Sequence record: OQ708377.1
Origin: Escherichia phage vB_EcoM_CRP22
DNA: 64,000 nucleotides
Reading direction: 5' to 3' (one strand)
Shown here piece by piece: positions 6,771 to 15,409 of the stretch; within the stretch, counting starts at the first letter, position 1, and each line of letters starts with the position of its first letter. The notes under the pieces are model-generated. The model had not been told where the DNA came from. It made no database searches and was given only the letters and a program-made list of their open reading frames with translations. A program made the translations under genes and the position numbers.

Positions 6771-7361
6771 TTAAGTCTTGGTCTTAAGTAGGTTCTTAAG
6801 TTTTTTAAGATTCATACTCTCATCAAACTTAAAACCAAATCCATTGACATAATCAATGAACTCGGATTTCTTACTAAGTGACAATGCGTAACTCATATCA
6901 AAGTTCTTACTTGTTTCTGCGTCTGGACTAGAGTTCACATCAAATGAAATTTCTGTAGATTCTTGCTTACTTTTTCTCATATTATCAACCAACAAACATG
7001 TATAGTTTGCTGGATAGAAGTTAACACTACCATCAACGTAGCTATACTTATTATTGTGAATAAGATTGAAAAATACATTAAAGAATGTTTCTGAGTCGTG
7101 GCACACAAGTTTGAATTGGCTGCTCTCTCCAAGCGCAACTAATGAGTACGGACTTTCACTATCAAAGTCATAATTTGGATTAGATGCCGTTACTGTTACA
7201 CGCATCAAGTTATTAGCAATAGTCTTCTGTTTAAAAGAATTTGGGACATAGTGAAGACCTCTATCACACTGATTGACTAGCTCTTTAAGTAGGTCATTTG
7301 CATATGGCGAATTAATTGATACAGAACCATCACTATTGTAATTAAAACTTACTGTTAACAT
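6771..7361 (-). CDS. hypothetical protein
   Basis: 196-aa ORF followed by hairpin aggggcatcagcccct. Confidence 0.45.
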   Translation of the reverse strand: MLTVSFNYNSDGSVSINSPYANDLLKELVNQCDRGLHYVPNSFKQKTIANNLMRVTVTASNPNYDFDSESPYSLVALGESSQFKLVCHDSETFFNVFFNLIHNNKYSYVDGSVNFYPANYTCLLVDNMRKSKQESTEISFDVNSSPDAETSKNFDMSYALSLSKKSEFIDYVNGFGFKFDESMNLKKLKNLLKTKT

Positions 7362-7588
7362 TTTTCAGTTCTCCTGCGATTTATAATTTTGCTGCAATAG
7401 AGAAACGAAGTAAACTCACTGGAAGAAACCATTAAGTGTTGTTCACTAGATTGAGCCATTGCCCTGAAATACATTCCAGTCAAAGCATCGTAGTGACTAT
7501 TCTTTCCAATTGAGGTTATATAGCCATGACTCTTTGCAGTTTTATATAAATCTATAATATCTGCGATTTCTAATTGGGAACTACACAT
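7355..7588 (-). CDS. hypothetical protein
   Basis: 77-aa ORF. Confidence 0.35.
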   Translation of the reverse strand: MCSSQLEIADIIDLYKTAKSHGYITSIGKNSHYDALTGMYFRAMAQSSEQHLMVSSSEFTSFLYCSKIINRRRTEKC

Positions 7589-7980
7589 AGATAATCCTCT
7601 TGTCTTCTGTAATTTTGAAAGAACAGGTACAGACCAATTTCAGAGGATGAATAGTAGAGTAACTCTACCCTTTTTGATTCCTTACAGTGATTGGTATTTT
7701 TACCTTTCTTCGGGTTGTTTGATTTTCTCATTAAGTCTCCTTTGTAGAACAAGGCAGACCTACAGCTTTAAGTAAGATGGTACAGTAATCCATACAACAA
7801 GTCAAGAACTATTGCAAGTTAAAAAAGTTGTTGACAAAGGACTTGACAAGGTGTAGGCTTATAAATACTTAGAAGATAACTTAAAAGGTTCCTCTAAAAA
7901 GGCTATTTAAACAGATATCTTTCTGGATATCTATCTTTTATCTTAAAAGCCTTTTAAGAGGTCTTATAAGAGGCATACCA

Positions 7981-8352
7981 ATGAAAAACAGAACAAACAA
8001 AGGCCAGTTTAAAAAAGGCCAGTCTGGAAACCCATCTGGAAGACCAAAAGGCTCTCGTAACAAAAGCTCACTTGTAAAAGCTCAACTGACCATTGATAAT
8101 TCTGCTGAGTTTGCTGCAAAGTTGTTTGAGGCGATTGTTACAAGGGACGCTGCTAAGCTTGCAGAGTTCGGTTTGACGACTGACGATGTAAACCTGAAGT
8201 CAATGATGGAAGCTGGTAAAACTATCATGACTCACTCAGCAGGTGAGATGAAAGCAATTGCAGCAGACACTAAGAAAACCACTGATAATGGTGGTCAGCC
8301 ACAGACAGATAACAAACCGACGTTCTCTGCTGTAGCGACTCTCAAAAAATAA
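7981..8352 (+). CDS. hypothetical protein with basic Gly/Pro-rich N-terminus
   Basis: 123 aa; ATG preceded by AAGAGG; N-terminal GNPSGRPKGSRNK motif. Confidence 0.45.
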   Translation: MKNRTNKGQFKKGQSGNPSGRPKGSRNKSSLVKAQLTIDNSAEFAAKLFEAIVTRDAAKLAEFGLTTDDVNLKSMMEAGKTIMTHSAGEMKAIAADTKKTTDNGGQPQTDNKPTFSAVATLKK

Positions 8353-8433
8353 TTTTAAAAGGTGTTGACAGACTCTACAAAGTTGCTCTAAAGTCTGTCA
8401 CATCAAACAACAAATGAGAGAAGAGAGTAAAAT

Positions 8434-9849
8434 ATGAGCGAGTTATTTAAACATGCGCACCTTCATGTAGGTCGAACTGAAAATGGTGCTGTAAACCATA
8501 CTTCATCAATGTCTGCTCTGGTAGACTTCTACAAAGCCGCTGGCTCAAGCCGTAGCAATGTAGAAATCTTACCAGACCTGTTCTACAAAGCTTTGCGTGA
8601 GGATGTTGATGTTGCAGTTCGTATTTTACTGCATATGCGAGATGTACGAGAAGGTATGGGTGAGCGTAAAGCTTTCCGAACTGTTTTGCTTCAAACGATT
8701 GAAGATAAGGTTTTAGAACCTACACAGGTTCTTCGCATTATGGATAAGATTGCAGAACTTGGTCGTTTTGATGACTTCAAAATCTTCGTAGGTACTCGTT
8801 TCGAGACAGATGCCTTCAAACATTTAGAAGCAGCATTACTAGACCCTGCAACAGCAGGTTTAGCGGCTAAGTGGTTACCACGAGTAAAACCACGCCACAA
8901 ACAGTTTGTAAAACGTTTCTGTAAGTTTGCAAACTTAAGCGAGAAGGAGTATCGCACACTGTTATCTGCACTGTCTGATACGGTTGAGCAAAAAATCTCT
9001 GCTAATGAGTTTGGTAAGATTGACTACAGCAAGATTCCTTCACTCGCTGCTGCACGTTACCAAAAACTCTTTAACCGTAAAGATGGGGAACGTTACAAAG
9101 CTTACATCGAGTCCCTCTCAAAAGGTGAGGCTAAGATTAACGCTGGTGCTGTTTACCCATATGATGTGATTAAATCTATTAAGTATGGTAATGCAGATGT
9201 TGCTAACGAGCAGTGGAAAGCACTACCAAACTGGATGGCAGAAGGTGAAAACATCTTGTGTATGACTGATGTTTCAAGCTCAATGTCTTGGGTGAATCTT
9301 GGCTCAATTACTGCCCTTGATATTGGTGTATCACTTGCCTTGTATGTAGCAGAACGCAATACAGGTTGCTTTAAAGATGAGTTAATGGTCTATTCAACAA
9401 ACCCTCATTTCATTGAACTGAGTGGTGATTTACGAAACCGTCATCGTCAGGTGATGCGTCATGTTGAATATGGTTCAACTAACTTACAAGCAGCCTTTGA
9501 CCGCATTCTTGAGACAGGTAAGAGAAACAACTTGACTCAGAAAGATATGCCAAGTAAGCTTATCATCTTCTCCGATATGGAGTTCAATCAGGTTGATGGA
9601 GCTAACGGTCGTACAAACTTTGAAGCAATTCAGAGCAAGTACAAAAAAGCTGGATATGAGATGCCACAACTGGTATTCTGGTACTTAGCAAACCGTAATG
9701 GCACTTGCGAAGTGTCTGTTAAGGATAATGGTGTAGCAATGGTATCAGGGTTCTCTCCAGCCACTTTAAAAGCTCTGCTTGGTGGTGAGAAGTTTGACCC
9801 AATCAGCGTAATGCTCAAAGCAGTAATGATTGACCGTTACATCTGGTAA
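8434..9849 (+). CDS. von Willebrand factor A (vWA) domain protein; possible Ro60/TROVE-like protein
   Basis: 471 aa; MIDAS-type DxSxS motif (CMTDVSSSMSW) after a ~270-aa N-terminal region; Ro60 assignment is inference from context only. Confidence 0.6.
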   Translation: MSELFKHAHLHVGRTENGAVNHTSSMSALVDFYKAAGSSRSNVEILPDLFYKALREDVDVAVRILLHMRDVREGMGERKAFRTVLLQTIEDKVLEPTQVLRIMDKIAELGRFDDFKIFVGTRFETDAFKHLEAALLDPATAGLAAKWLPRVKPRHKQFVKRFCKFANLSEKEYRTLLSALSDTVEQKISANEFGKIDYSKIPSLAAARYQKLFNRKDGERYKAYIESLSKGEAKINAGAVYPYDVIKSIKYGNADVANEQWKALPNWMAEGENILCMTDVSSSMSWVNLGSITALDIGVSLALYVAERNTGCFKDELMVYSTNPHFIELSGDLRNRHRQVMRHVEYGSTNLQAAFDRILETGKRNNLTQKDMPSKLIIFSDMEFNQVDGANGRTNFEAIQSKYKKAGYEMPQLVFWYLANRNGTCEVSVKDNGVAMVSGFSPATLKALLGGEKFDPISVMLKAVMIDRYIW

Positions 9850-9867
9850 AAAGTTTTGAAAAGGGTA

Positions 9868-9896
9868 TTGACAATGTGTTTAATACCCTTTAATAT
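9868..9896 (+). promoter_or_regulatory. sigma70-like promoter embedded in an inverted repeat, upstream of tRNA array
   Basis: TTGACA - 17 nt - TAATAT; flanked by aagggtatt ... aataccctt. Confidence 0.5.
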
Positions 9897-10014
9897 GTTC
9901 TACATAGAAACGAAATGAGAGCTTTTCTAAGATACTGAAAAATATTTTAAAAAAGTTCTTGACAACCACTAAAAAATAATGTTAAAGTGGTTACATAGAG
10001 TTTGAAAAGTTTAT

Positions 10015-10091
10015 CTCTGTTTAGCTCAGCTTGGTAGAGCGTTCCGTTTGGGGCGGTAAGGCCGGAGGTTCAAGTCCTCCAACAGAGACCA
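10015..10091 (+). tRNA. tRNA-Pro (anticodon TGG)
   Basis: 7-bp acceptor ctctgtt/aacagag, D-arm GCTCAGCTTGGTAGAGC, T-arm ggagg-ttcaagt-cctcc, CCA encoded. Confidence 0.75.
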
Positions 10092-10098
10092 AATTAAT

Positions 10099-10176
10099 GT
10101 TCCAGTAGACAAAATGGTATAGTCACCACTCTTTCAAAGTGGATATTTGAGGGTTCAAATCCCTTCTGGAACGCCA
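10099..10176 (+). tRNA. tRNA-Glu (anticodon TTC)
   Basis: Acceptor gttccag/ctggaac, anticodon stem ccact/agtgg with loop ctTTCaa, T-loop ttcaaat, CCA. Confidence 0.75.
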
Positions 10177-10267
10177 GTTTTGACAGAAGACCAATTACAG
10201 CAAGTTTAATCTTATTCATCTGACACGAAATCGGACAAAGAAGAGATTTGGTCTGGTCATTAAGAAT

Positions 10268-10344
10268 TGCGGGTATAGAGAAAGGGCGTCTCACATGTCT
10301 CATTAGCATGGTATCGGCAGGTTCGACTCCTGCACCCGCCTCCA
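10268..10344 (+). tRNA. tRNA-Met (anticodon CAT)
   Basis: Acceptor tgcgggt/acccgcc, anticodon loop ctCATta, T-arm gcagg-ttcgact-cctgc, CCA. Confidence 0.65.
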
Positions 10345-10421
10345 ATTTTGCAGAAGACCGTATTCAGCAACAAACTACTTTTTGCGGATAAAAGAAAAAA
10401 CACGGTCTGGCAATGTATTAA

Positions 10422-10497
10422 GGTTAGGAAGCACATAAGGTATGTGCGGTCGCCTGTTAAGCGAATGGCACAGGGTTCGAATCCCTGACTAACCGCA
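10422..10497 (+). tRNA. tRNA-Asn (anticodon GTT)
   Basis: Anticodon loop ctGTTaa, T-arm caggg-ttcgaat-ccctg; acceptor has one mismatch. Confidence 0.6.
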
Positions 10498-10506
10498 AAA
10501 TTAAAT

Positions 10507-10594
10507 GTGTCGTTATCCCGTAGATGGTAGCGGTGGGGACTGTAAATCCCTTGTCATTGAGACTCGGTAGGTTCGACTCCTACACGGCACACCA
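10507..10594 (+). tRNA. tRNA-Tyr (anticodon GTA), long variable arm
   Basis: Acceptor gtgtcgt/acggcac, anticodon stem gggga/tccct with loop ctGTAaa, long extra arm, T-arm gtagg-ttcgact-cctac, CCA. Confidence 0.7.
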
Positions 10595-10616
10595 ACACTT
10601 AGCGAGATACTTAGTT

Positions 10617-11045
10617 ATGAGAGATGAAGTATACAAATCACAACTTGGTATGAGTTTAGGAACTGCACAAAACAGACTAGTAAAAGATTTGCTATTCGAT
10701 TTTATATGTAAAACAAATCAAAATAGATGTTTTCAGTGCGGAAAAGAAATGACTAGGGATGATTTCTCCATCGAGCATAAGGTTCCGTGGAGACATAGTG
10801 AAAACGCAAAAGAGCTTTTCTTTTCACTGGATAATATCTCTTATAGTCATCTTAAATGTAATATGAAAGCAGCAAGACCAGCACAGATAAGTGAAAGAAA
10901 ACATAAAACAGTTGAACACGGAACTGCGTATAGCTATTACAAAGGCTGTAGATGCGAGGAGTGTAGGTTGGCTAAGAATGCTGCTAGCAGGAAGAACTAT
11001 AGCCCAGAAAGGCGTAGGAAGAAGTATTTAAGAAATGGCACATAG
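10617..11045 (+). CDS. HNH endonuclease (free-standing, inside tRNA array)
   Basis: 143 aa from internal ATG; CFQCGKEM...EHKVPW...HLKCN zinc-binding HNH-like motifs; the track ORF start at 10524 overlaps tRNA-Tyr and is rejected. Confidence 0.7.
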   Translation: MRDEVYKSQLGMSLGTAQNRLVKDLLFDFICKTNQNRCFQCGKEMTRDDFSIEHKVPWRHSENAKELFFSLDNISYSHLKCNMKAARPAQISERKHKTVEHGTAYSYYKGCRCEECRLAKNAASRKNYSPERRRKKYLRNGT

Positions 11046-11049
11046 TTTT

Positions 11050-11125
11050 GGGGTATTAGTTTAGACGGTTAAAATACGGGATTGTCTCTCCTGAGCCGCG
11101 AGTTCGATTCTCGCATACCTCGCCA
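11050..11125 (+). tRNA. tRNA-Asp (anticodon GTC)
   Basis: Acceptor ggggtat/atacctc, anticodon stem cggga/tcctg with loop ttGTCtc, T-arm gcgag-ttcgatt-ctcgc, CCA. Confidence 0.7.
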
Positions 11126-11273
11126 ATTTTGAGAGGGCTATTTAGCCCCTCCCTTAAAGAGTTATTACGAGTATTCTTTAAAGGAGCAGAAGACCAAATT
11201 CAGCAAGTTACTTAAAATTTCAAGCCAATTTAATTTTGAAAAATTTAAAACTTGGTCTGGCTTAACAAATTTA

Positions 11274-11404
11274 CAGAAGACCGTTTACAGCAAAACTTAA
11301 ACAATCTATTTCTCGGTAAAGAAAAGGCGAAGGTTCGATTCCTTCACTCGGCAGATGTCGAGTTGGTGTAATGGTAGCACTTAAGATGATAAACAACGGT
11401 CTGG
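11274..11404 (+). ncRNA. Candidate structured ncRNA: circularly permuted tRNA-like module enclosed by an 8-bp stem (possible Y-RNA/YrlA-like element)
   Basis: Linear order is stem strand agaccgtt, T-arm gaagg-ttcgatt-ccttc, acceptor 3' strand actcggc, 4-nt loop, acceptor 5' strand gtcgagt, D-arm gtgt-aatggta-gcac, stem strand aacggtct; the acceptor halves pair over 7 bp. Confidence 0.35.
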
Positions 11405-11405
11405 T

Positions 11406-11551
11406 AATTATCTTTGCAGTAGCTTATGTGGCTAATTATGTCGTCCCATGAGTGCCGATGAATTTCCTTAGCATGATTCTAGATTAGCTTAATAGGGAAT
11501 GACTCTACAGACCCTTTAGCAAGGTCTGCGTAGGTTACTGCAAAGATAATT
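11406..11551 (+). ncRNA. Candidate structured RNA domain closed by a 16-bp stem
   Basis: aattatctttgcagta (11406-11421) is the perfect reverse complement of tactgcaaagataatt (11535-11550), enclosing ~112 nt with an internal cagacc...ggtctg hairpin. Confidence 0.3.
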
Positions 11552-11555
11552 TAAT

Positions 11556-11631
11556 GGAAGTGTAGCAGAATGGTGATGCGGCAGACTTTTAATCTGACAG
11601 GCGATGGGTTCGAATCCATCCACTTCTACCA
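11556..11631 (+). tRNA. tRNA-Lys (anticodon TTT)
   Basis: Acceptor ggaagtg/cacttct, anticodon loop ctTTTaa, T-loop ttcgaat, CCA. Confidence 0.6.
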
Positions 11632-11635
11632 ATAT

Positions 11636-11712
11636 GGTTCAGTCGCAGATAAGGTAATGCAGGGGTCTCATAAGCCCTATGAATGTGGGTTCGATTCCCA
11701 TCTGAACCTCCA
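11636..11712 (+). tRNA. tRNA with anticodon CAT (Met, initiator-like, or Ile2)
   Basis: Acceptor ggttcag/ctgaacc, anticodon loop ctCATaa on a stem with three consecutive G-C pairs, T-loop ttcgatt, CCA. Confidence 0.7.
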
Positions 11713-11714
11713 AT

Positions 11715-11790
11715 GCTGTGAAAGCACATATGGATGTGCATTCGGCTGATAACCGAAAGGAAGAAGGTTCGAATCCTTCTCACAGTACCA
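11715..11790 (+). tRNA. tRNA-Ile (anticodon GAT)
   Basis: Acceptor gctgtga/tcacagt, anticodon stem ttcgg/ccgaa with loop ctGATaa, T-arm gaagg-ttcgaat-ccttc, CCA. Confidence 0.7.
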
Positions 11791-11805
11791 ATTTCAATAA
11801 AGTTG

Positions 11806-11834
11806 TTGACATTGAGATGTGACCACTTTATAGT
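11806..11834 (+). promoter_or_regulatory. sigma70-like promoter inside the tRNA array
   Basis: TTGACA - 17 nt - TATAGT, preceded by A-rich tract aaagttg. Confidence 0.5.
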
Positions 11835-12126
11835 AACTAAAATACTTCATAATATGTATAATTCAAACACCAATACATGAGTATTAGACGTAATGCAATG
11901 TGGGGAAATTTGTTGTACATATTCTGAATAGTTTTCGTTGCGTAGCGTCTATTTTGCAAATTTAAAATAAATGCAAACGACAATGTTTTTCTGGCAGTAG
12001 CTTGATAGGCTAAACACCAGTGAGGTCTTCCAATCCCTCATCAAAGAATTTGGCGTACTCGCCCACGGTATGATTAATAAGGTGGGCATCTTTAAGGGTT
12101 TTTAAGAGAGTCTTTAAAGATAATTA

Positions 12127-12208
12127 CGGGGCGTATCTCAGCTGTCTTCTAAACAGCCGTTAACCGAGTAAGTGGAGTATGCGGGTTCGAGTCCTGCCGC
12201 CTCGACCA
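12127..12208 (+). tRNA. Atypical tRNA-like gene, possibly Arg (anticodon TCT); D-arm not resolvable
   Basis: Acceptor cggggcg/cgcctcg, T-arm gcggg-ttcgagt-cctgc, CCA; clean stem gctgt/acagc with loop ctTCTaa but no canonical D-arm by eye. Confidence 0.4.
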
Positions 12209-12222
12209 ATTTTGGAGAAATC

Positions 12223-12570
12223 ATGAAAACTTGTATTAGGTGCAAACTTAGCAAGGATGAAAATGATTTCTACATGAAAGATGGTAGAAGAACTCATTCA
12301 TACTGTAAAAAGTGTGTTAATGAGCAAACCATAGAAAGACAAAGAGCACTTAAACTCTCAGCTATTGAGTACAAAGGTGGTGTTTGTCAGGATTGTGGTA
12401 AAAGGTATCATCCAGCAGTGTATGACTTCCATCATTTGAATCCTTCAGAGAAAGATTTTAACATTGCTCATAGAAGAAGTCTTAAGTTCTCTCAGGAGCT
12501 TAAGAACGAACTTGACAAATGTGTTTTGCTATGTTCAAATTGCCATAGGGTAAGACATGCAAAGTATTAG
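12223..12570 (+). CDS. HNH endonuclease (free-standing, inside tRNA array)
   Basis: 115 aa from internal ATG (MKTCIRCK...); CxxC pairs and FHHLNP...LLCSNCHRVRH HNH motif; the track start at 12172 overlaps the preceding tRNA-like gene. Confidence 0.7.
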   Translation: MKTCIRCKLSKDENDFYMKDGRRTHSYCKKCVNEQTIERQRALKLSAIEYKGGVCQDCGKRYHPAVYDFHHLNPSEKDFNIAHRRSLKFSQELKNELDKCVLLCSNCHRVRHAKY

Positions 12571-12707
12571 TTAGCAGATTGCTTAGACGACCTTATCGGG
12601 TCTCCGTGTAAGGAGGTGGTCTGTATCTCATGTTTTCCAGAACATGTAAATAATCTGAGAAGGGGCTTTACAGTGTTGAGATAATACGGTAAGCTTCGAA
12701 TTATAAT

Positions 12708-12790
12708 ATGGGACGATGTTAAGACTCTAAGGCATGAGCAACGGCTTCCAACACCGTTTCAAAGGGGTTCAACTCCTCCGTCCCATGCCA
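12708..12790 (+). tRNA. Atypical tRNA-like gene with an apparent 9-nt anticodon loop
   Basis: Perfect acceptor atgggac/gtcccat, T-loop ttcaact, CCA; best anticodon helix aacgg/ccgtt encloses cttccaaca (9 nt); D-region longer than canonical. Confidence 0.4.
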
Positions 12791-12803
12791 AAGTCTTATT
12801 AGG

Positions 12804-12893
12804 GGTAGGTAGCGGCTAATGGTAGCCAAACTGTCTTGAAAACAGTTGCCACTGTAGAGATACGGTGAGGGTTCGACTCCTTTACTTACCGCC
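12804..12893 (+). tRNA. tRNA-Ser (anticodon TGA), long variable arm
   Basis: Acceptor ggtaggt/acttacc, anticodon stem actgt/acagt with loop ctTGAaa, long variable arm, T-loop ttcgact. Confidence 0.7.
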
Positions 12894-13148
12894 TAATAAG
12901 ATTTAAAGCCAAGCTTCATTCGGATGTTGCTTTGGTATCCCTCGTGTATTGTCGTACACACTGATAAAGCACCTGGTAGGTGTCACGGAGAAGAGATAAT
13001 ATCAAGCTCTCCAAAGGTTCTAGTCACCGGATTAAACAAGACTATGCAAAGACCAATTTAGGTCTTTTTAGAGGGCTTCTAAGGTTATTACAGCTTGTTG
13101 TGGAACCTTGTTGCTTAGGTTCTTAGAAGTTCTCTAAAAAGATTTAAT

Positions 13149-13225
13149 GCACCTATAGCCCAATTGGTAGAGGCAGCAGACTTAGAATCTGTTCAGTGTG
13201 AGTTCGAATCTCTCTAGGTGTACCA
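13149..13225 (+). tRNA. tRNA with anticodon TAG (Leu-type), short variable arm
   Basis: Acceptor gcaccta/taggtgt, anticodon stem gcaga/tctgt with loop ctTAGaa, T-loop ttcgaat, A73, CCA. Confidence 0.6.
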
Positions 13226-13232
13226 AATTAAT

Positions 13233-13308
13233 GCAGGTGTAGCAAAATGGTTATGCGGCTGACTCTTAATCAGTAAGACGATGGGTTCAATTCCCTCCAC
13301 CTGTACCA
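13233..13308 (+). tRNA. tRNA-Lys (anticodon CTT)
   Basis: Acceptor gcaggtg/cacctgt, anticodon stem gctga/tcagt with loop ctCTTaa, T-loop ttcaatt (weak T-stem), CCA. Confidence 0.55.
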
Positions 13309-13314
13309 AACATT

Positions 13315-13390
13315 GGGGTCATAGTTTATATGGTTAAAATTCGAGTTTTGCAAACTTGGGAACTGAGTTCAATTCTCAGTGACTCCACCA
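13315..13390 (+). tRNA. tRNA-Ala (anticodon TGC)
   Basis: Acceptor ggggtca/tgactcc, anticodon stem cgagt/acttg with loop ttTGCaa, T-arm ctgag-ttcaatt-ctcag, CCA. Confidence 0.7.
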
Positions 13391-13396
13391 ATTAGT

Positions 13397-13471
13397 GCAT
13401 CCATAGTTTAAACGGGAAAATTACAGTCTTCCAAACTGAGGTTGAGGGTTCGATTCCCTCTGGATGCTCCA
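13397..13471 (+). tRNA. tRNA-Gly (anticodon TCC)
   Basis: Acceptor gcatcca/tggatgc, anticodon loop ctTCCaa, T-arm gaggg-ttcgatt-ccctc, CCA. Confidence 0.7.
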
Positions 13472-13478
13472 AATTAAT

Positions 13479-13555
13479 GCTGCTTTCGTATAATTGGCTA
13501 TTACACATCCCTTGTAAGGATGGAAATGCAGGTTCGAGTCCTGTGAGCAGCACCA
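13479..13555 (+). tRNA. tRNA-Thr (anticodon TGT)
   Basis: Acceptor gctgctt/gagcagc, anticodon stem catcc/ggatg with loop ctTGTaa, T-arm gcagg-ttcgagt-cctgt, CCA. Confidence 0.7.
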
Positions 13556-13651
13556 ATTCAGAGGTCAAGTGAAAGACCGCTTTGAGTCAACTGAAGACCG
13601 TAACAAATCCCACGGAGTTGAGTTAGCGGCACAACTTCAGACCTCTTTCAT

Positions 13652-13726
13652 ACTCGCTTAGTTTATATGGTAAAACATCAACCTTACAAGATGAAGAAAA
13701 AGGTTCAAGTCCTTTAGTGAGTACCA
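13652..13726 (+). tRNA. tRNA-Val (anticodon TAC)
   Basis: Acceptor actcgct/agtgagt, D-stem gttt/aaac, anticodon loop ctTACaa, T-arm aaagg-ttcaagt-ccttt, CCA. Confidence 0.65.
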
Positions 13727-13727
13727 T

Positions 13728-13805
13728 GTTCCAGTATCCCAATTGGCAGAGGATGCAAGCTCAAACCTTGTATTAGTGACGGTTCGAATCCGTCTTGGAA
13801 CACCA
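13728..13805 (+). tRNA. tRNA with anticodon CAA (Leu-type), short variable arm
   Basis: Acceptor gttccag/ttggaac, anticodon stem gcaag/cttgt with loop ctCAAac, T-arm gacgg-ttcgaat-ccgtc, A73, CCA. Confidence 0.6.
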
Positions 13806-13810
13806 ATTTT

Positions 13811-13885
13811 GCAGGATTAGTTCAAATGGATAGAGCAACAGTCTACGAAGCTGTTAATAGGGGTTCGAATCCCTTATCCTGCGCC
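13811..13885 (+). tRNA. tRNA-Arg (anticodon ACG)
   Basis: Perfect acceptor gcaggat/atcctgc, D-arm TAGTTCAAATGGATAGAGC, anticodon loop ctACGaa, T-loop ttcgaat, CCA. Confidence 0.75.
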
Positions 13886-13892
13886 AATTAAA

Positions 13893-13969
13893 TAGGGGAT
13901 TAGTTTACAAGGTTAAAACCTCGGTCTTTGAAATCGAAGAAGTTGGTTCAATTCCAACATCCCCCGCCA
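13893..13969 (+). tRNA. tRNA-Gln (anticodon TTG)
   Basis: Acceptor aggggat/atccccc (1-72 mismatch), D-stem gttt/aaac, anticodon stem tcggt/atcga with loop ctTTGaa, T-arm gttgg-ttcaatt-ccaac, CCA. Confidence 0.65.
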
Positions 13970-13971
13970 AT

Positions 13972-14050
13972 GCTCCATTACTCCAATTGGCAGAGAGGCC
14001 AGACTTAAAATCTGTGTTATGTATCGGTTCGAATCCGATATGGAGTACCA
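13972..14050 (+). tRNA. tRNA with anticodon TAA (Leu-type)
   Basis: Acceptor gctccat/atggagt, anticodon loop ctTAAaa, T-arm atcgg-ttcgaat-ccgat, A73, CCA; D-arm parse ambiguous. Confidence 0.55.
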
Positions 14051-14055
14051 AATTT

Positions 14056-14131
14056 AGCGGTATAGCATAACTGGCAATGCAGCAGTCTCTGAAGCTGTCT
14101 TATTAAGGTTCAAATCCTTATGCCGCTGCCA
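14056..14131 (+). tRNA. tRNA-Gln (anticodon CTG)
   Basis: Acceptor agcggta/tgccgct, D-stem gcat/atgc, anticodon stem gcagt/gctgt with loop ctCTGaa, T-loop ttcaaat, CCA. Confidence 0.65.
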
Positions 14132-14162
14132 CTTCTAAGGGTTCTTACGAGAGTCCTTAAAT

Positions 14163-14238
14163 GTGGCCTTATCATAAAAGGTAATGACCCATGCTGTGAA
14201 CATGGTCTATACGGGTTCAAATCCCGTAGGTCACCCCA
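14163..14238 (+). tRNA. tRNA-His (anticodon GTG)
   Basis: Acceptor gtggcct/aggtcac, anticodon stem ccatg/catgg with loop ctGTGaa, T-arm acggg-ttcaaat-cccgt, CCA. Confidence 0.7.
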
Positions 14239-14243
14239 ATTTA

Positions 14244-14320
14244 TAGTCCAAGTAGCTTATATGGTTAAAGCGCGTGTCTGAAAAACATGAGAAGAGGGTT
14301 CAAATCCCACTGGACTACCA
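14244..14320 (+). tRNA. tRNA-Phe (anticodon GAA)
   Basis: Acceptor tagtcca/tggacta, D-stem gctt/aagc, anticodon stem cgtgt/acatg with loop ctGAAaa, T-loop ttcaaat. Confidence 0.6.
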
Positions 14321-14337
14321 ATTTCAAAGGTGCTTAA

Positions 14338-15071
14338 TGAAAGAGATGACAGAACAAGGTAAGGAGATTTTTAATCTCTTAAAAACCGGTAGAGGGTTTT
14401 CTAATCCCCTTATTACTGGTGCAGCAGTTCTCGGTGGAACCGTAGCTACCTCTACATCACTTGTAAACTCTATTAGCTCTGTAACAGACCCTACAATAAA
14501 GGATAAACTTGTTGCTGCTGGACTTACAACAGTTCTGCTTAACAGCTTTACAACGAGTCTGACAAGCACTACATCAACCACTAAAACACCGACAGATTAC
14601 GGTCAAAAGTCCATTGATGAGTTTTCATCACGTATGCAGGTAGCAAAAGGATACTCTAATGTTATGGGTGCAGCAGGAGAGCAAGTTGGTTGTACACCAT
14701 TTAGTGGTATTATGGGTGTTGCTACAGAGTATGGTCAAAAAGCTATTGACACAATTAACAGTGCACTAGACGGTGTTAATGATGTATTAAGTGACTTACA
14801 AGATGCTATTGATAAAGGTCTTGATACTATTTCTGATTTAGCTAACCAAGCTGTTAGTAAGATTAATGAAGGTATTTCGAAGATTACAGCTTATGCAGAT
14901 GAAGTTGTGCAGATGATTGAAGAAGAAGCTGCCCTTATTGCAGAGTACCTTAAAACGAATATCAATGGGTTCTTAGCAGGTATCTTACCAGACTGGTTTG
15001 ACGATGCTTGTAAAACTGGTGTGATTGATACTATTGCAACACCAGAAATGAAGAACGCATTACAGAAATAA
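14338..15071 (+). CDS. hypothetical Ser/Thr-rich protein encoded inside the tRNA array
   Basis: 244 aa from internal ATG (MKEMTEQGKEIF...); the track start at 14274 overlaps tRNA-Phe; long S/T-rich region followed by a helical C-terminus. Confidence 0.45.
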
Positions 15072-15072
15072 T

Positions 15073-15165
15073 GGAAGATTAACCCTAAAAGGTAAGGGAG
15101 CAGTTTGCTAAACTGCCAGTAGCTGAGAAATCGGTGTACCAGTTCAAGTCTGGTATCTTCCTCCA
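15073..15165 (+). tRNA. tRNA-Ser (anticodon GCT), long variable arm
   Basis: Perfect acceptor ggaagat/atcttcc, anticodon stem gcagt/actgc with loop ttGCTaa, long variable arm, T-arm accag-ttcaagt-ctggt, CCA. Confidence 0.75.
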
Positions 15166-15169
15166 ATTT

Positions 15170-15245
15170 GAATCCGTGACAGAAATGGCTATGTGCCTGT
15201 CTGCAAAACAGGTTTATAAGGGTTCGAGTCCCTTCGGATTCTCCA
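15170..15245 (+). tRNA. tRNA-Cys (anticodon GCA)
   Basis: Perfect acceptor gaatccg/cggattc, anticodon stem cctgt/acagg with loop ctGCAaa, T-arm aaggg-ttcgagt-ccctt, CCA. Confidence 0.75.
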
Positions 15246-15284
15246 AGTTATTTTACTCTCTCTCTCAATTAAAATAATAATAAT

Positions 15285-15345
15285 GCCCTGCTATAAGTAT
15301 TCTTCCTTTCGCTACCGAAGAGTATTTTTAGACAGGGCTTTTTTA
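15285..15345 (+). terminator. Rho-independent terminator with nested hairpin, after tRNA array
   Basis: gccctg ... cagggc followed by TTTTTT. Confidence 0.5.
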
Positions 15346-15409
15346 CAGAGTTATACTTTATAAGAAGACTTATACAGTATGTCTCTGACGTACATTGTGG
15401 TTTCTCCTT

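Follow-up and report, generated by a model that had tools for sequence, protein, structure and literature searches.

Within the 64,000-nucleotide (nt) stretch of Escherichia phage vB_EcoM_CRP22 analysed here (record OQ708377.1; the whole stretch is called the window below), an open reading frame (ORF) for a 471-residue protein with a predicted Ro60-like fold is followed, on the same strand, by four structured RNA units that share a stem and the hexamer CAGCAA, and units with the same signature lie beside homologous genes in phages of distant hosts. Ro60/Y RNA particles are conserved from bacteria to humans. We consider it rather probable that the phage protein likewise binds the units, through their stem/CAGCAA module, and forms Ro60/Y-RNA-like particles with them, in which the variable inserts of the RNAs would recruit or occlude other factors. 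The initial annotation of this locus had proposed a link between a Ro60-like protein and one Y-RNA-like module. As far as computation reaches, that interpretation is supported, namely by the fold of the protein, the topology of one of the RNAs and the occurrence of the same signature beside distant homologous genes, whereas membership of the bacterial Y RNA family YrlA did not stand.

The protein and the RNA units of the window

The MIDAS-type vWA motif noted by the initial annotation in this ORF is present as CMTDVSSSM at residues 276–284, and the MIDAS residues D279, S281, S283, T349 and D381 are invariant in a 34-sequence alignment reaching down to 43% identity. Pfam assigned DUF2828 to the N-terminal part of the protein (E 3e-29) and DUF7788 to residues 275–455 (E 3e-43), and its match among the PHROGs is PHROG 850, 'RNA-binding protein'; NCBIfam and PADLOC searches returned nothing. 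An AlphaFold2 model built on the 34-member alignment (predicted local distance difference test, 88; predicted template modelling score, 0.88) shows an alpha-helical ring ahead of the vWA domain, in keeping with the helical N-terminal region of about 270 residues noted earlier. When the model was compared with the PDB by Foldseek, the ten best matches were to Thermus phage phiLo Ro60, Xenopus Ro60, human Ro60 and Deinococcus Rsr (E 9e-8 to 2e-6; template modelling score 0.52–0.67; 506–558 aligned columns, full-length), with isolated vWA domains ranking below them at E ≥ 3e-3. By profile, too, the vWA region can be aligned, if weakly, with the vWA domain of human Ro60 (see below). The model therefore has a TROVE-like fold, since its best PDB matches are Ro60, Rsr and phage Ro60. 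Because these matches are of the Ro60 type despite the lack of a TROVE or Ro60 sequence match, we regard the protein, on the strength of the model, as a structural Ro60 homologue in a separate and very divergent sequence family.

This family comprises 2849 clusters at E ≤ 1e-3 (among scored candidates) and is present in at least 709 phage genomes, including Vibrio KVP40-like phages, phages of Klebsiella, Aeromonas, Campylobacter, Listeria, Staphylococcus, Enterococcus and Bacillus, and mycobacteriophages, in which curators have named a member 'Ro-like RNA binding protein'.

The RNA units were recognized by a shared string, AGAAGACCnnnTnCAGCAA, which occurs four times in the 64 kb (at 10185, 10352, 11188 and 11275, all on the + strand), each time just downstream of the ORF; 0.24 occurrences are expected, and none of 100 shuffles reached four. 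The sequence nnnGGTCTGG occurs 50–120 nt past each copy. All four units take a common fold, consisting of a 4-base-pair (bp) outer stem, an AGA-over-G internal loop, an AGACCnn(n)/(n)nnGGUCU helix and a U-N-CAGCAA tract that opens the apical region. The AGA/G loop and CAGCAA are invariant in all four units, and the outer stems differ from unit to unit yet pair in each (Table 1).

The units start 332, 499, 1335 and 1422 nt past the stop codon of the ORF. Unit 1 fills the gap between tRNA-Glu (ending at 10176) and tRNA-Met (starting at 10268), and unit 2 that between tRNA-Met (ending at 10344) and tRNA-Asn (starting at 10422); maturation of the flanking tRNAs would therefore free unit 1 as an RNA of about 79 nt and unit 2 as one of about 66 nt.

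With the 3.1-kb region as a query, Felixounavirus genomes (Salmonella phages SWJM-02 and BPS17W1, Escherichia phage wV8 and others) matched at 95–98% DNA identity, and the source of the window is, judged by this match, a Felix O1-like phage (Felixounavirus). All four units are kept in 27 of the 27 Felixounavirus loci fetched, with an invariant module, freely variable apical loops and stems that carry compensatory changes, such as UUGC/GCAA versus UUAC/GUAA in the outer stem of unit 2. A search of the window and 11 related loci against Rfam 15, at gathering thresholds and at E ≤ 10, gave only tRNAs and chance matches, and no family fits the units. Lines for tmRNA and tmRNA_permuted at 11879–12125 (15–20 bits), as well as snoRNA and miRNA lines, were dismissed as noise. 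Two further candidates, terminators and self-cleaving ribozymes, were rejected, the first because the units have no U tracts and the second because there were no Rfam ribozyme matches.

A tRNA-like insert is carried in the window by unit 4 only, units 1–3 having no tRNA part. The module stem of unit 4 (agaccgtt, 11278–11285, with aacggtct, 11395–11402) encloses a T arm (11329–11345; GAAGG-UUCGAUU-CCUUC), a closed acceptor (11346–11363), in which the 3′ strand (11346–11352) is joined to the 5′ strand (11357–11363) by the loop AGAU (11353–11356), and a D arm (11366–11380) with G18G19. These arms lie where the initial annotation had placed them, and RNAfold agrees; it adds a variable-arm-like (V) hairpin (11309–11324) and a 5-bp anticodon-stem-like helix (11296–11300/11381–11385). 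The RNA of 11271–11407 is a circularly permuted tRNA-like RNA, with V hairpin, T arm, closed acceptor and D arm inside a terminal stem, and the YrlA-type order that had been claimed for it is borne out. It has no anticodon loop, the stem continuing instead into the CAGCAA/terminal module, and its acceptor is closed by a 4-nt loop without CCA.

In native order, neither ARAGORN nor Rfam called a tRNA in 11271–11407, where only a 21-nt T-arm fragment scored (14.9 bits). Once unit 4 had been un-permuted in silico, with the 5′ half placed behind the 3′ half, the junction where the enclosing stem lies, and ACCA added, ARAGORN drew a complete cloverleaf. Among Felixounaviruses the acceptor hairpin occurs in compensatory variants (ACUCGGC/GUCGAGU, ACACGU/GCGUGU and ACCCUUC/GAAGGGU), and RNAalifold recovers the full architecture, three pairs being kept through double changes. 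The single RNA module of the initial annotation is thus real, while its three siblings and their common CAGCAA signature had been overlooked; and the last ~150 nt of the range of that annotation (11406–11551) form a separate, very stable structure.

The same signature in distant phages

A core signature made up of an AGG-stem, UUACAGCAA, a variable insert and CCUG was found beside homologous genes (29–52% identity) of phages whose hosts are Proteobacteria, Firmicutes, Actinobacteria and Campylobacter; it is on the strand of the gene in every case and mostly within 600 nt of it. In Klebsiella phage FBKp34, whose protein is 52% identical, the gene lies directly before a tRNA array, as in the window, and in the 480-nt gap there are four or more units that differ in their stems and share WUACAGCAA, one of them with a permuted tRNA-like insert and a textbook D arm. 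Mycobacterium phage Gabriela (34% identical) has three units in a 370-nt gap past the gene, the middle one tRNA-like, and no annotated tRNA gene within 6 kb of the Ro60-like gene. In Campylobacter, Aeromonas and Listeria-type phages, similar sets of units stand just upstream of the gene.

For a systematic count, we scanned 64 non-redundant loci (proteins 29–52% identical) for CAGCAA preceded by a strand that pairs over at least 7 bp with a segment 12–200 nt downstream; a 6-bp version of this scanner had a high background and was replaced by the 7-bp form with decoy controls. On the gene strand, the 500 nt downstream of the gene held 41 units over all loci and the 500 nt upstream of it 23, compared with means of 3.15 and 2.25, respectively, and a maximum of 7, for 20 composition-matched decoy hexamers. 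Inside the gene the count was 6 against 5.25 for the decoys, and the far flanks were likewise at background. At least one unit was detected within 1.6 kb at 50 of 65 loci.

A seed alignment was assembled from 34 short units of 21 loci, in which CAGCAA is invariant and the strands of an 8-bp helix are aligned. This helix is 93% paired, compared with 59% in shuffles (0 of 500 as high) and 34–45% with slid partners, a percentage that is partly circular because the seeds had been picked by a scan that requires a stem; the covariation score was 0.95 versus 0.24, with double substitutions at every helix pair. The decoy, strand and position statistics are not touched by this circularity.

The covariance model built from the 34-unit alignment, named R1, recovered units 1–3 and nothing else from the whole window (E 1.5e-6 to 9e-5; next best, E 0.38), missing unit 4 because of its 100-nt insert. 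Across 678 kb from the 64 loci, searched on both strands, R1 gave 55 matches at E ≤ 0.1, every one of them on the strand of the gene; for 45 the distance to the gene is no more than 600 nt, and 19 come from loci outside the seed. In five phages fetched afterwards, its 16 matches were again on the gene's strand only. Three tandem units stand directly past the gene in Staphylococcus phage 6ec, units adjoin the gene in Listeria phage LMSP-25, Enterococcus phage VRE9_1 and Bacillus phage PBC2, and those of Ralstonia phage RSP15 are found within the surrounding tRNA array. In PBC2 the units and the tRNA array are on different strands, so that the units go with the gene and not with the tRNAs. The consensus of the 55 matches reads (A/U)AGGNUNNU-UA-CAGCAA ... 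NNNANCCU-G, with G-C as the second base pair in 52 of 55 and with CAGCA and the 3′ G in 54–55 of 55.

Five other phage lineages have the layout of unit 4 in different sequences. Permuted modules in which the T arm is perfect, the closed acceptor has 7 bp and the 4-bp D stem has GG in its loop occur beside the gene in Felixounavirus, FBKp34, Gabriela, and metagenomic and Cronobacter-type loci, and their stems are unrelated in sequence between lineages yet fully paired. Only cases with a 7/7 acceptor and a 4/4 D stem were used here, as a 6/7 acceptor criterion mostly caught ordinary adjacent tRNAs. All five of the permuted modules tested were called tRNAs by ARAGORN once un-permuted.

Two further topologies were observed. 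In the first, apparent tRNAs carry in the anticodon-loop region a 40–48-nt insert that consists of a hairpin followed by UUACAGCA(A/U) or AUUCAGCA; such genes, 111–121 nt long, are found in Klebsiella, Aeromonas and Cronobacter phages that also encode the protein (L033 8003–8116; L035 3494–3610; L036 7895–8015 and 8025–8137), and one is entered in GenBank as tRNA-Asp. Their products may be partners that have the shape of a tRNA and do not decode or, alternatively, tRNAs with a new kind of intron. In the other, seen in one RNA (L099 7322–7434), the conserved stem replaces the acceptor stem. All three topologies consist of a tRNA body joined to the same module and differ only in the position of the chain ends.

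Several side observations concern the tRNA context of the gene. In Cronobacter phage LPCS28 (L036 8203–8240), ACCA directly follows the 3′ strand of the acceptor and precedes the linker that leads to the 5′ strand, and the unit that bears it has the look of a freshly permuted tRNA gene, which suggests how such domains arise. In eight or more phage groups unrelated to one another, the Ro60-like gene lies within a tRNA array or next to one. Genes for RNA repair or tRNA maturation, namely an RtcB-type 'tRNA-splicing ligase' (Listeria phage LMSP-25), RNA ligase 2 (Aeromonas phage LAh_6), a CCA-adding enzyme and a phosphoesterase, are found a few kb from the Ro60-like gene in several phages (L121, LMSP-25, 6811–8022; L035, LAh_6, 11070–11993; L036, LPCS28, 12281–13321; L122 6181–6723). 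This placement and these neighbours offer a hint, and only a hint, of tRNA surveillance or repair or of tRNA-directed immunity.

Organization of the locus

The locus stands at the start of a rightward transcription unit, in which a small DUF5681 gene (7981–8352) and the 471-residue ORF are followed by an array of 25 tRNA genes (10015–15245) broken by two HNH endonuclease ORFs. Promoter-like sites are listed in Table 1; their number in the region equals the shuffle expectation, and the sites at 9868–9988 are, by sequence, the probable start of a transcript of tRNAs and Y-like RNAs. In Salmonella phage SLAM_phiST56, the annotated relative examined, the gaps tRNA-Glu/tRNA-Met, tRNA-Met/tRNA-Asn and tRNA-Asp/tRNA-Lys are featureless.

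Table 1. Features of the Ro60-like locus, in positions of the window
Feature	Coordinates	Strand	Basis
Sigma-70-like promoter match (TTGACA-18-TAAAGT) before the Ro60-like gene	8365–8394	+	Consensus match only
Ro60-like protein gene, 471 residues: alpha-helical TROVE-like ring (about residues 1–265), then vWA with MIDAS	8434–9849	+	Pfam, PHROG, AlphaFold2, Foldseek, alignment
Codons for TDVSSSM (MIDAS DxSxS)	9265–9285	+	
Two promoter-like sites before the first tRNA	9868–9896; 9959–9988	+	Consensus matches only
Y-like unit 1: UGAC/GUCA outer stem, AGA/G loop, AGACCAA/UUGGUCU helix, CAGCAA at 10198–10203	10181–10259	+	R1, E 9e-5
Y-like unit 2: UUGC/GCAA outer stem, shared loop and helix, CAGCAA at 10365–10370	10348–10413	+	R1, E 1.5e-6
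Y-like unit 3: GAGC/GCUU outer stem, shared loop and helix, CAGCAA at 11201–11206	11184–11263	+	R1, E 7e-6
Y-like unit 4: UUAC/GUAA outer stem, AGA/G loop, AGACCGUU/AACGGUCU helix, CAGCAA at 11288–11293	11271–11407	+	
Separate multi-branch element of about 146 nt with a 23-bp closing stem, lying between unit 4 and tRNA-Lys	11406–11551	+	-54.3 kcal/mol, z -6.2

The HNH ORFs lie at 10524–11045 and 12172–12570 (+). The first, in its longest mechanical form, starts inside tRNA-Tyr (10507–10594), and relatives annotate a shorter homing endonuclease; they also differ in the presence or absence of the 10524–11045 insert (83% coverage classes). At 12127–12205 (+), an Rfam tRNA match of 31.2 bits, just over gathering in a smaller-region search and absent from the ARAGORN output, overlaps the start of the second HNH ORF, and one relative annotates a tRNA-Arg between tRNA-Ile and tRNA-Ser. 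At 12700–12800 (+) there is a tRNA-like 3′ part, with the T arm GGGGUUCAACUCCUC, a 7-bp acceptor (UGGGACG/CGUCCCA) and then UGCCA; a UAAGACU/AGUCUUA pairing and a GAGCAA tract are interwoven with this part, and none of the tools reported a tRNA here. The sequence might be what is left of a tRNA or, alternatively, another, degenerate relative of the units.

Every Felixounavirus locus has the structured element at 11406–11551, in one of two forms that differ strongly in sequence, keep the closing stem and show compensatory changes. It had no Rfam match. A mini-hairpin at about 11507–11528, ACAGACC-CUUUAGCAA-GGUCUG, resembles a collapsed copy of the Y-like module, and the membership of the whole element in the Ro60-like/Y-like system is uncertain.

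Interpretation and comparison with known systems

We propose that the units at 10181–11407 are noncoding RNA partners of the Ro60-like protein and would act as functional analogues of Y RNAs. They would be co-transcribed with the tRNA array and released, presumably as stable species, by RNase P and 3′-end processing of the flanking tRNAs. The putative binding site for the protein comprises the A-U/G-C helix base, the 3′ G and the CAGCAA tract atop the 5′ strand, a helix that would be analogous to the GGUCCGA/GNCGAA helix of canonical Y RNAs. The variable insert may serve as an effector module, and that of unit 4 could bind to proteins or other factors specific for the elbow of tRNAs, a role already proposed for YrlA. 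During infection the particle would most likely modulate host RNA decay, tRNA surveillance or repair, or an immune response. The similarity of fold, the covarying RNA structures and the genetic linkage across phyla are results of the analysis, from which binding, processing, stability and function are inferred.

One relative of the protein has a described phenotype. In the Felixounavirus Bas63, the gene for gp130 is directly upstream of a tRNA stretch, and the predicted structure of gp130 is Ro60-like (2024 preprint, PMC11482910); its deletion cripples growth on a host with the ppl defence, and gp130 alone restores growth of T7 there (PMC11482910). From synteny and the description in the preprint, gp130 is almost certainly the orthologue of the 471-residue protein. 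The RNAs may regulate or re-target the protein, or serve another function.

Several results weigh against the proposal. As gp130 counters ppl alone, from a plasmid or from T7, that activity needs no RNAs. On the protein side, the TROVE-like part is assigned from the predicted structure; Pfam gave no TROVE (PF05731) match at E ≤ 1, a search suggested by the initial annotation; phmmer with the protein, and a search with a profile of the 34-member family, found no Ro60 among PDB sequences; and hhalign of the family profile with human Ro60 (a sequence that Pfam identified as TROVE plus vWA_Ro60) yielded a colinear but weak alignment of the vWA part only (probability 48%, E 1.8e-4). On the RNA side, the scanner detected no unit within 1.6 kb at about 15 of 65 loci, and the partial circularity of the seed pairing counts in the same direction. 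The bacterial Y RNA models also suggested for this locus, YrlA and Y_RNA, gave no match at E ≤ 10 in either 11126–11555 or 9800–15400, and GNCGAA is absent from the units, whose 5′ strand reads (U/G)NNCAGAAGACC. The nearest string to that motif, CAGAAG, contains one A too many and, beyond Felixounavirus, is not conserved. A sole YrlA line of 17 bits at 14184–14306, over two tRNAs, was set aside as a chance match. Because both the covariance-model match and the GNCGAA motif are lacking, we do not class the units as members of YrlA.

The main rival to RNA partners of the protein is cis action, in which the units would be operators for autoregulation by the protein of its own mRNA or of the tRNA operon, or processing or stability signals of the polycistronic tRNA transcript; we hold it to be unlikely, though deserving of serious consideration. 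It would account for the many distant loci where a single unit stands 23–30 nt past the stop codon or within about 100 nt before the start codon, in the manner of an untranslated region, as well as for units 1 and 2, which exactly fill tRNA–tRNA spacers, and for the action of gp130 on ppl without the RNAs. It fits less well with tandem sets of three to six units that may be upstream or downstream of the gene, or with the window, where tRNAs and an HNH gene intervene; the complete tRNA-like domains of some units would be needless for a simple operator, and precedent favours free Y RNAs beside Ro60 genes. Even cis action implies that the protein recognises the motif.

We think it quite improbable that the units derive from tRNA genes by decay or rearrangement, or are hairpins of the spacers, with no functional tie to the protein gene and beside it by coincidence. 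The units do lie inside a rearrangement-prone array of 25 tRNAs invaded by HNH genes, and unit 4 has tRNA-derived arms, but the signature follows the gene and not the tRNAs, as shown by Gabriela, with its three units and no annotated tRNA within 6 kb, by PBC2, whose units share the strand of the gene while the array is on the other, and by the 55 and 16 R1 matches, all on the gene's strand; moreover, the stems covary instead of decaying. Least plausible of all, to the point of being hardly credible, is a decoding tRNA made from unit 4 as a permuted gene processed at the acceptor loop, Cyanidioschyzon-like, or as a split tRNA: the order 3′ half, linker, 5′ half, the ACCA of the Cronobacter homologue (L036 8203–8240) and the acceptance of un-permuted forms by ARAGORN speak for it, whereas there is no anticodon loop, the stem continuing into the CAGCAA/terminal stem, the 4-nt acceptor loop in the window lacks CCA, and three siblings share the terminal module without any tRNA part.

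Returning to RNA partners of the protein, we would give roughly even chances to the broader view that DUF2828-type proteins (at least 709 phage genomes) and CAGCAA-stem RNAs constitute an unrecognised, phage-wide class of ribonucleoprotein particles (RNPs), in which the module has been grafted on tRNA scaffolds in at least three topologies and tRNA mimicry is directed at host tRNA/RNA surveillance or tRNA-directed immunity. Annotation and one preprint had anticipated the protein side in part; for the RNA side, we found no prior description in the literature on DUF2828, YrlA in phages, Felixounavirus Ro60 and phage Ro60 in defence. The units are unannotated in the Felixounavirus record examined, and their relatives elsewhere are mis-annotated as intron-containing or odd tRNAs. 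If the view is true, a second lineage, unrelated in sequence, has the Ro60/Y RNA architecture, and the design of protein ring plus tRNA mimic would be under strong selection. The system is common in therapeutic and model phages (Felix O1, Listeria P100/A511-type, staphylococcal and KVP40-type phages and cluster L-type mycobacteriophages), which offers many natural variants for dissection, and the invariant CAGCAA/stem is a handle for mutagenesis, pulldown and annotation by covariance model. As gp130 already has an anti-ppl phenotype, its mechanism could be put to the test through the RNAs, as could the question of why phages have tRNA arrays.

Among known systems, the closest in layout is that of YrlA. 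Next to the Ro60 genes of bacteria and of some phages there are Y RNAs, one or more of them of tRNA-like form (YrlA), and the putative Ro contact is GNCGAA(N)G (PMC4201824). As in the YrlA/YrlB loci of Salmonella and Mycobacterium smegmatis (RF02553), a gene for a Ro60 fold is followed here, on the same strand and within 4 kb, by several end-paired RNAs, one of which has a V hairpin and then T arm, closed acceptor and D arm, while its shorter siblings lack the domain, as does YrlB. The differences are that the phage gene is a homologue of Ro60 by fold and not its orthologue; that the phage protein is DUF2828/DUF7788 and not TROVE, and is about 60 residues shorter than the Ro60 (Rsr) of YrlA systems; that the conserved element of the RNAs is an AGG...CCUG helix base plus UUACAGCAA and not GNCGAA(N)G; and that the RNAs are embedded in a phage tRNA array. 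The variation among three topologies echoes the difference in chain ends between YrlA and Deinococcus Yrn1 noted by Chen et al. (2014, PMC4201824).

Permuted tRNA genes of Cyanidioschyzon merolae share with unit 4 a tRNA-like 3′ half that precedes the 5′ half; unit 4, unlike these, has no anticodon loop and its junction is the conserved protein-module stem, so that no decoding tRNA would be expected from it. The metazoan Ro60/Y RNA RNP has in common with the phage system a ring-plus-vWA protein and an RNA whose terminal stem has a conserved asymmetric internal loop or bulge and whose effector loop varies, and differs from it in RNA sequence, where there is no similarity, and in its partners and biology.

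Two phage systems complete the comparison. The Ro60 of Thermus phage phiLo binds two CGAA-containing Yrl RNAs and the host PNPase, and has been proposed to act on host RNA decay (PNPase) and to counter host defence (PMC12135203). Like the system described here, phiLo Ro60 with Yrl1/Yrl2 (PDB 9KOP, 9L5Y) combines a phage-encoded Ro60 fold, among the best structural matches of our model, with adjacent phage Y-like RNAs; it is, in contrast, a recognisable Ro60 homologue with CGAA Yrls, whereas our units carry another motif and accompany another sequence family. For Bas63, the authors of PhageMaP speculated that 'some tRNA genes ... are possibly Y RNAs' (PMC11482910). Their guess concerned annotated tRNA genes, whereas the candidates proposed here are the unannotated RNAs between the tRNAs.

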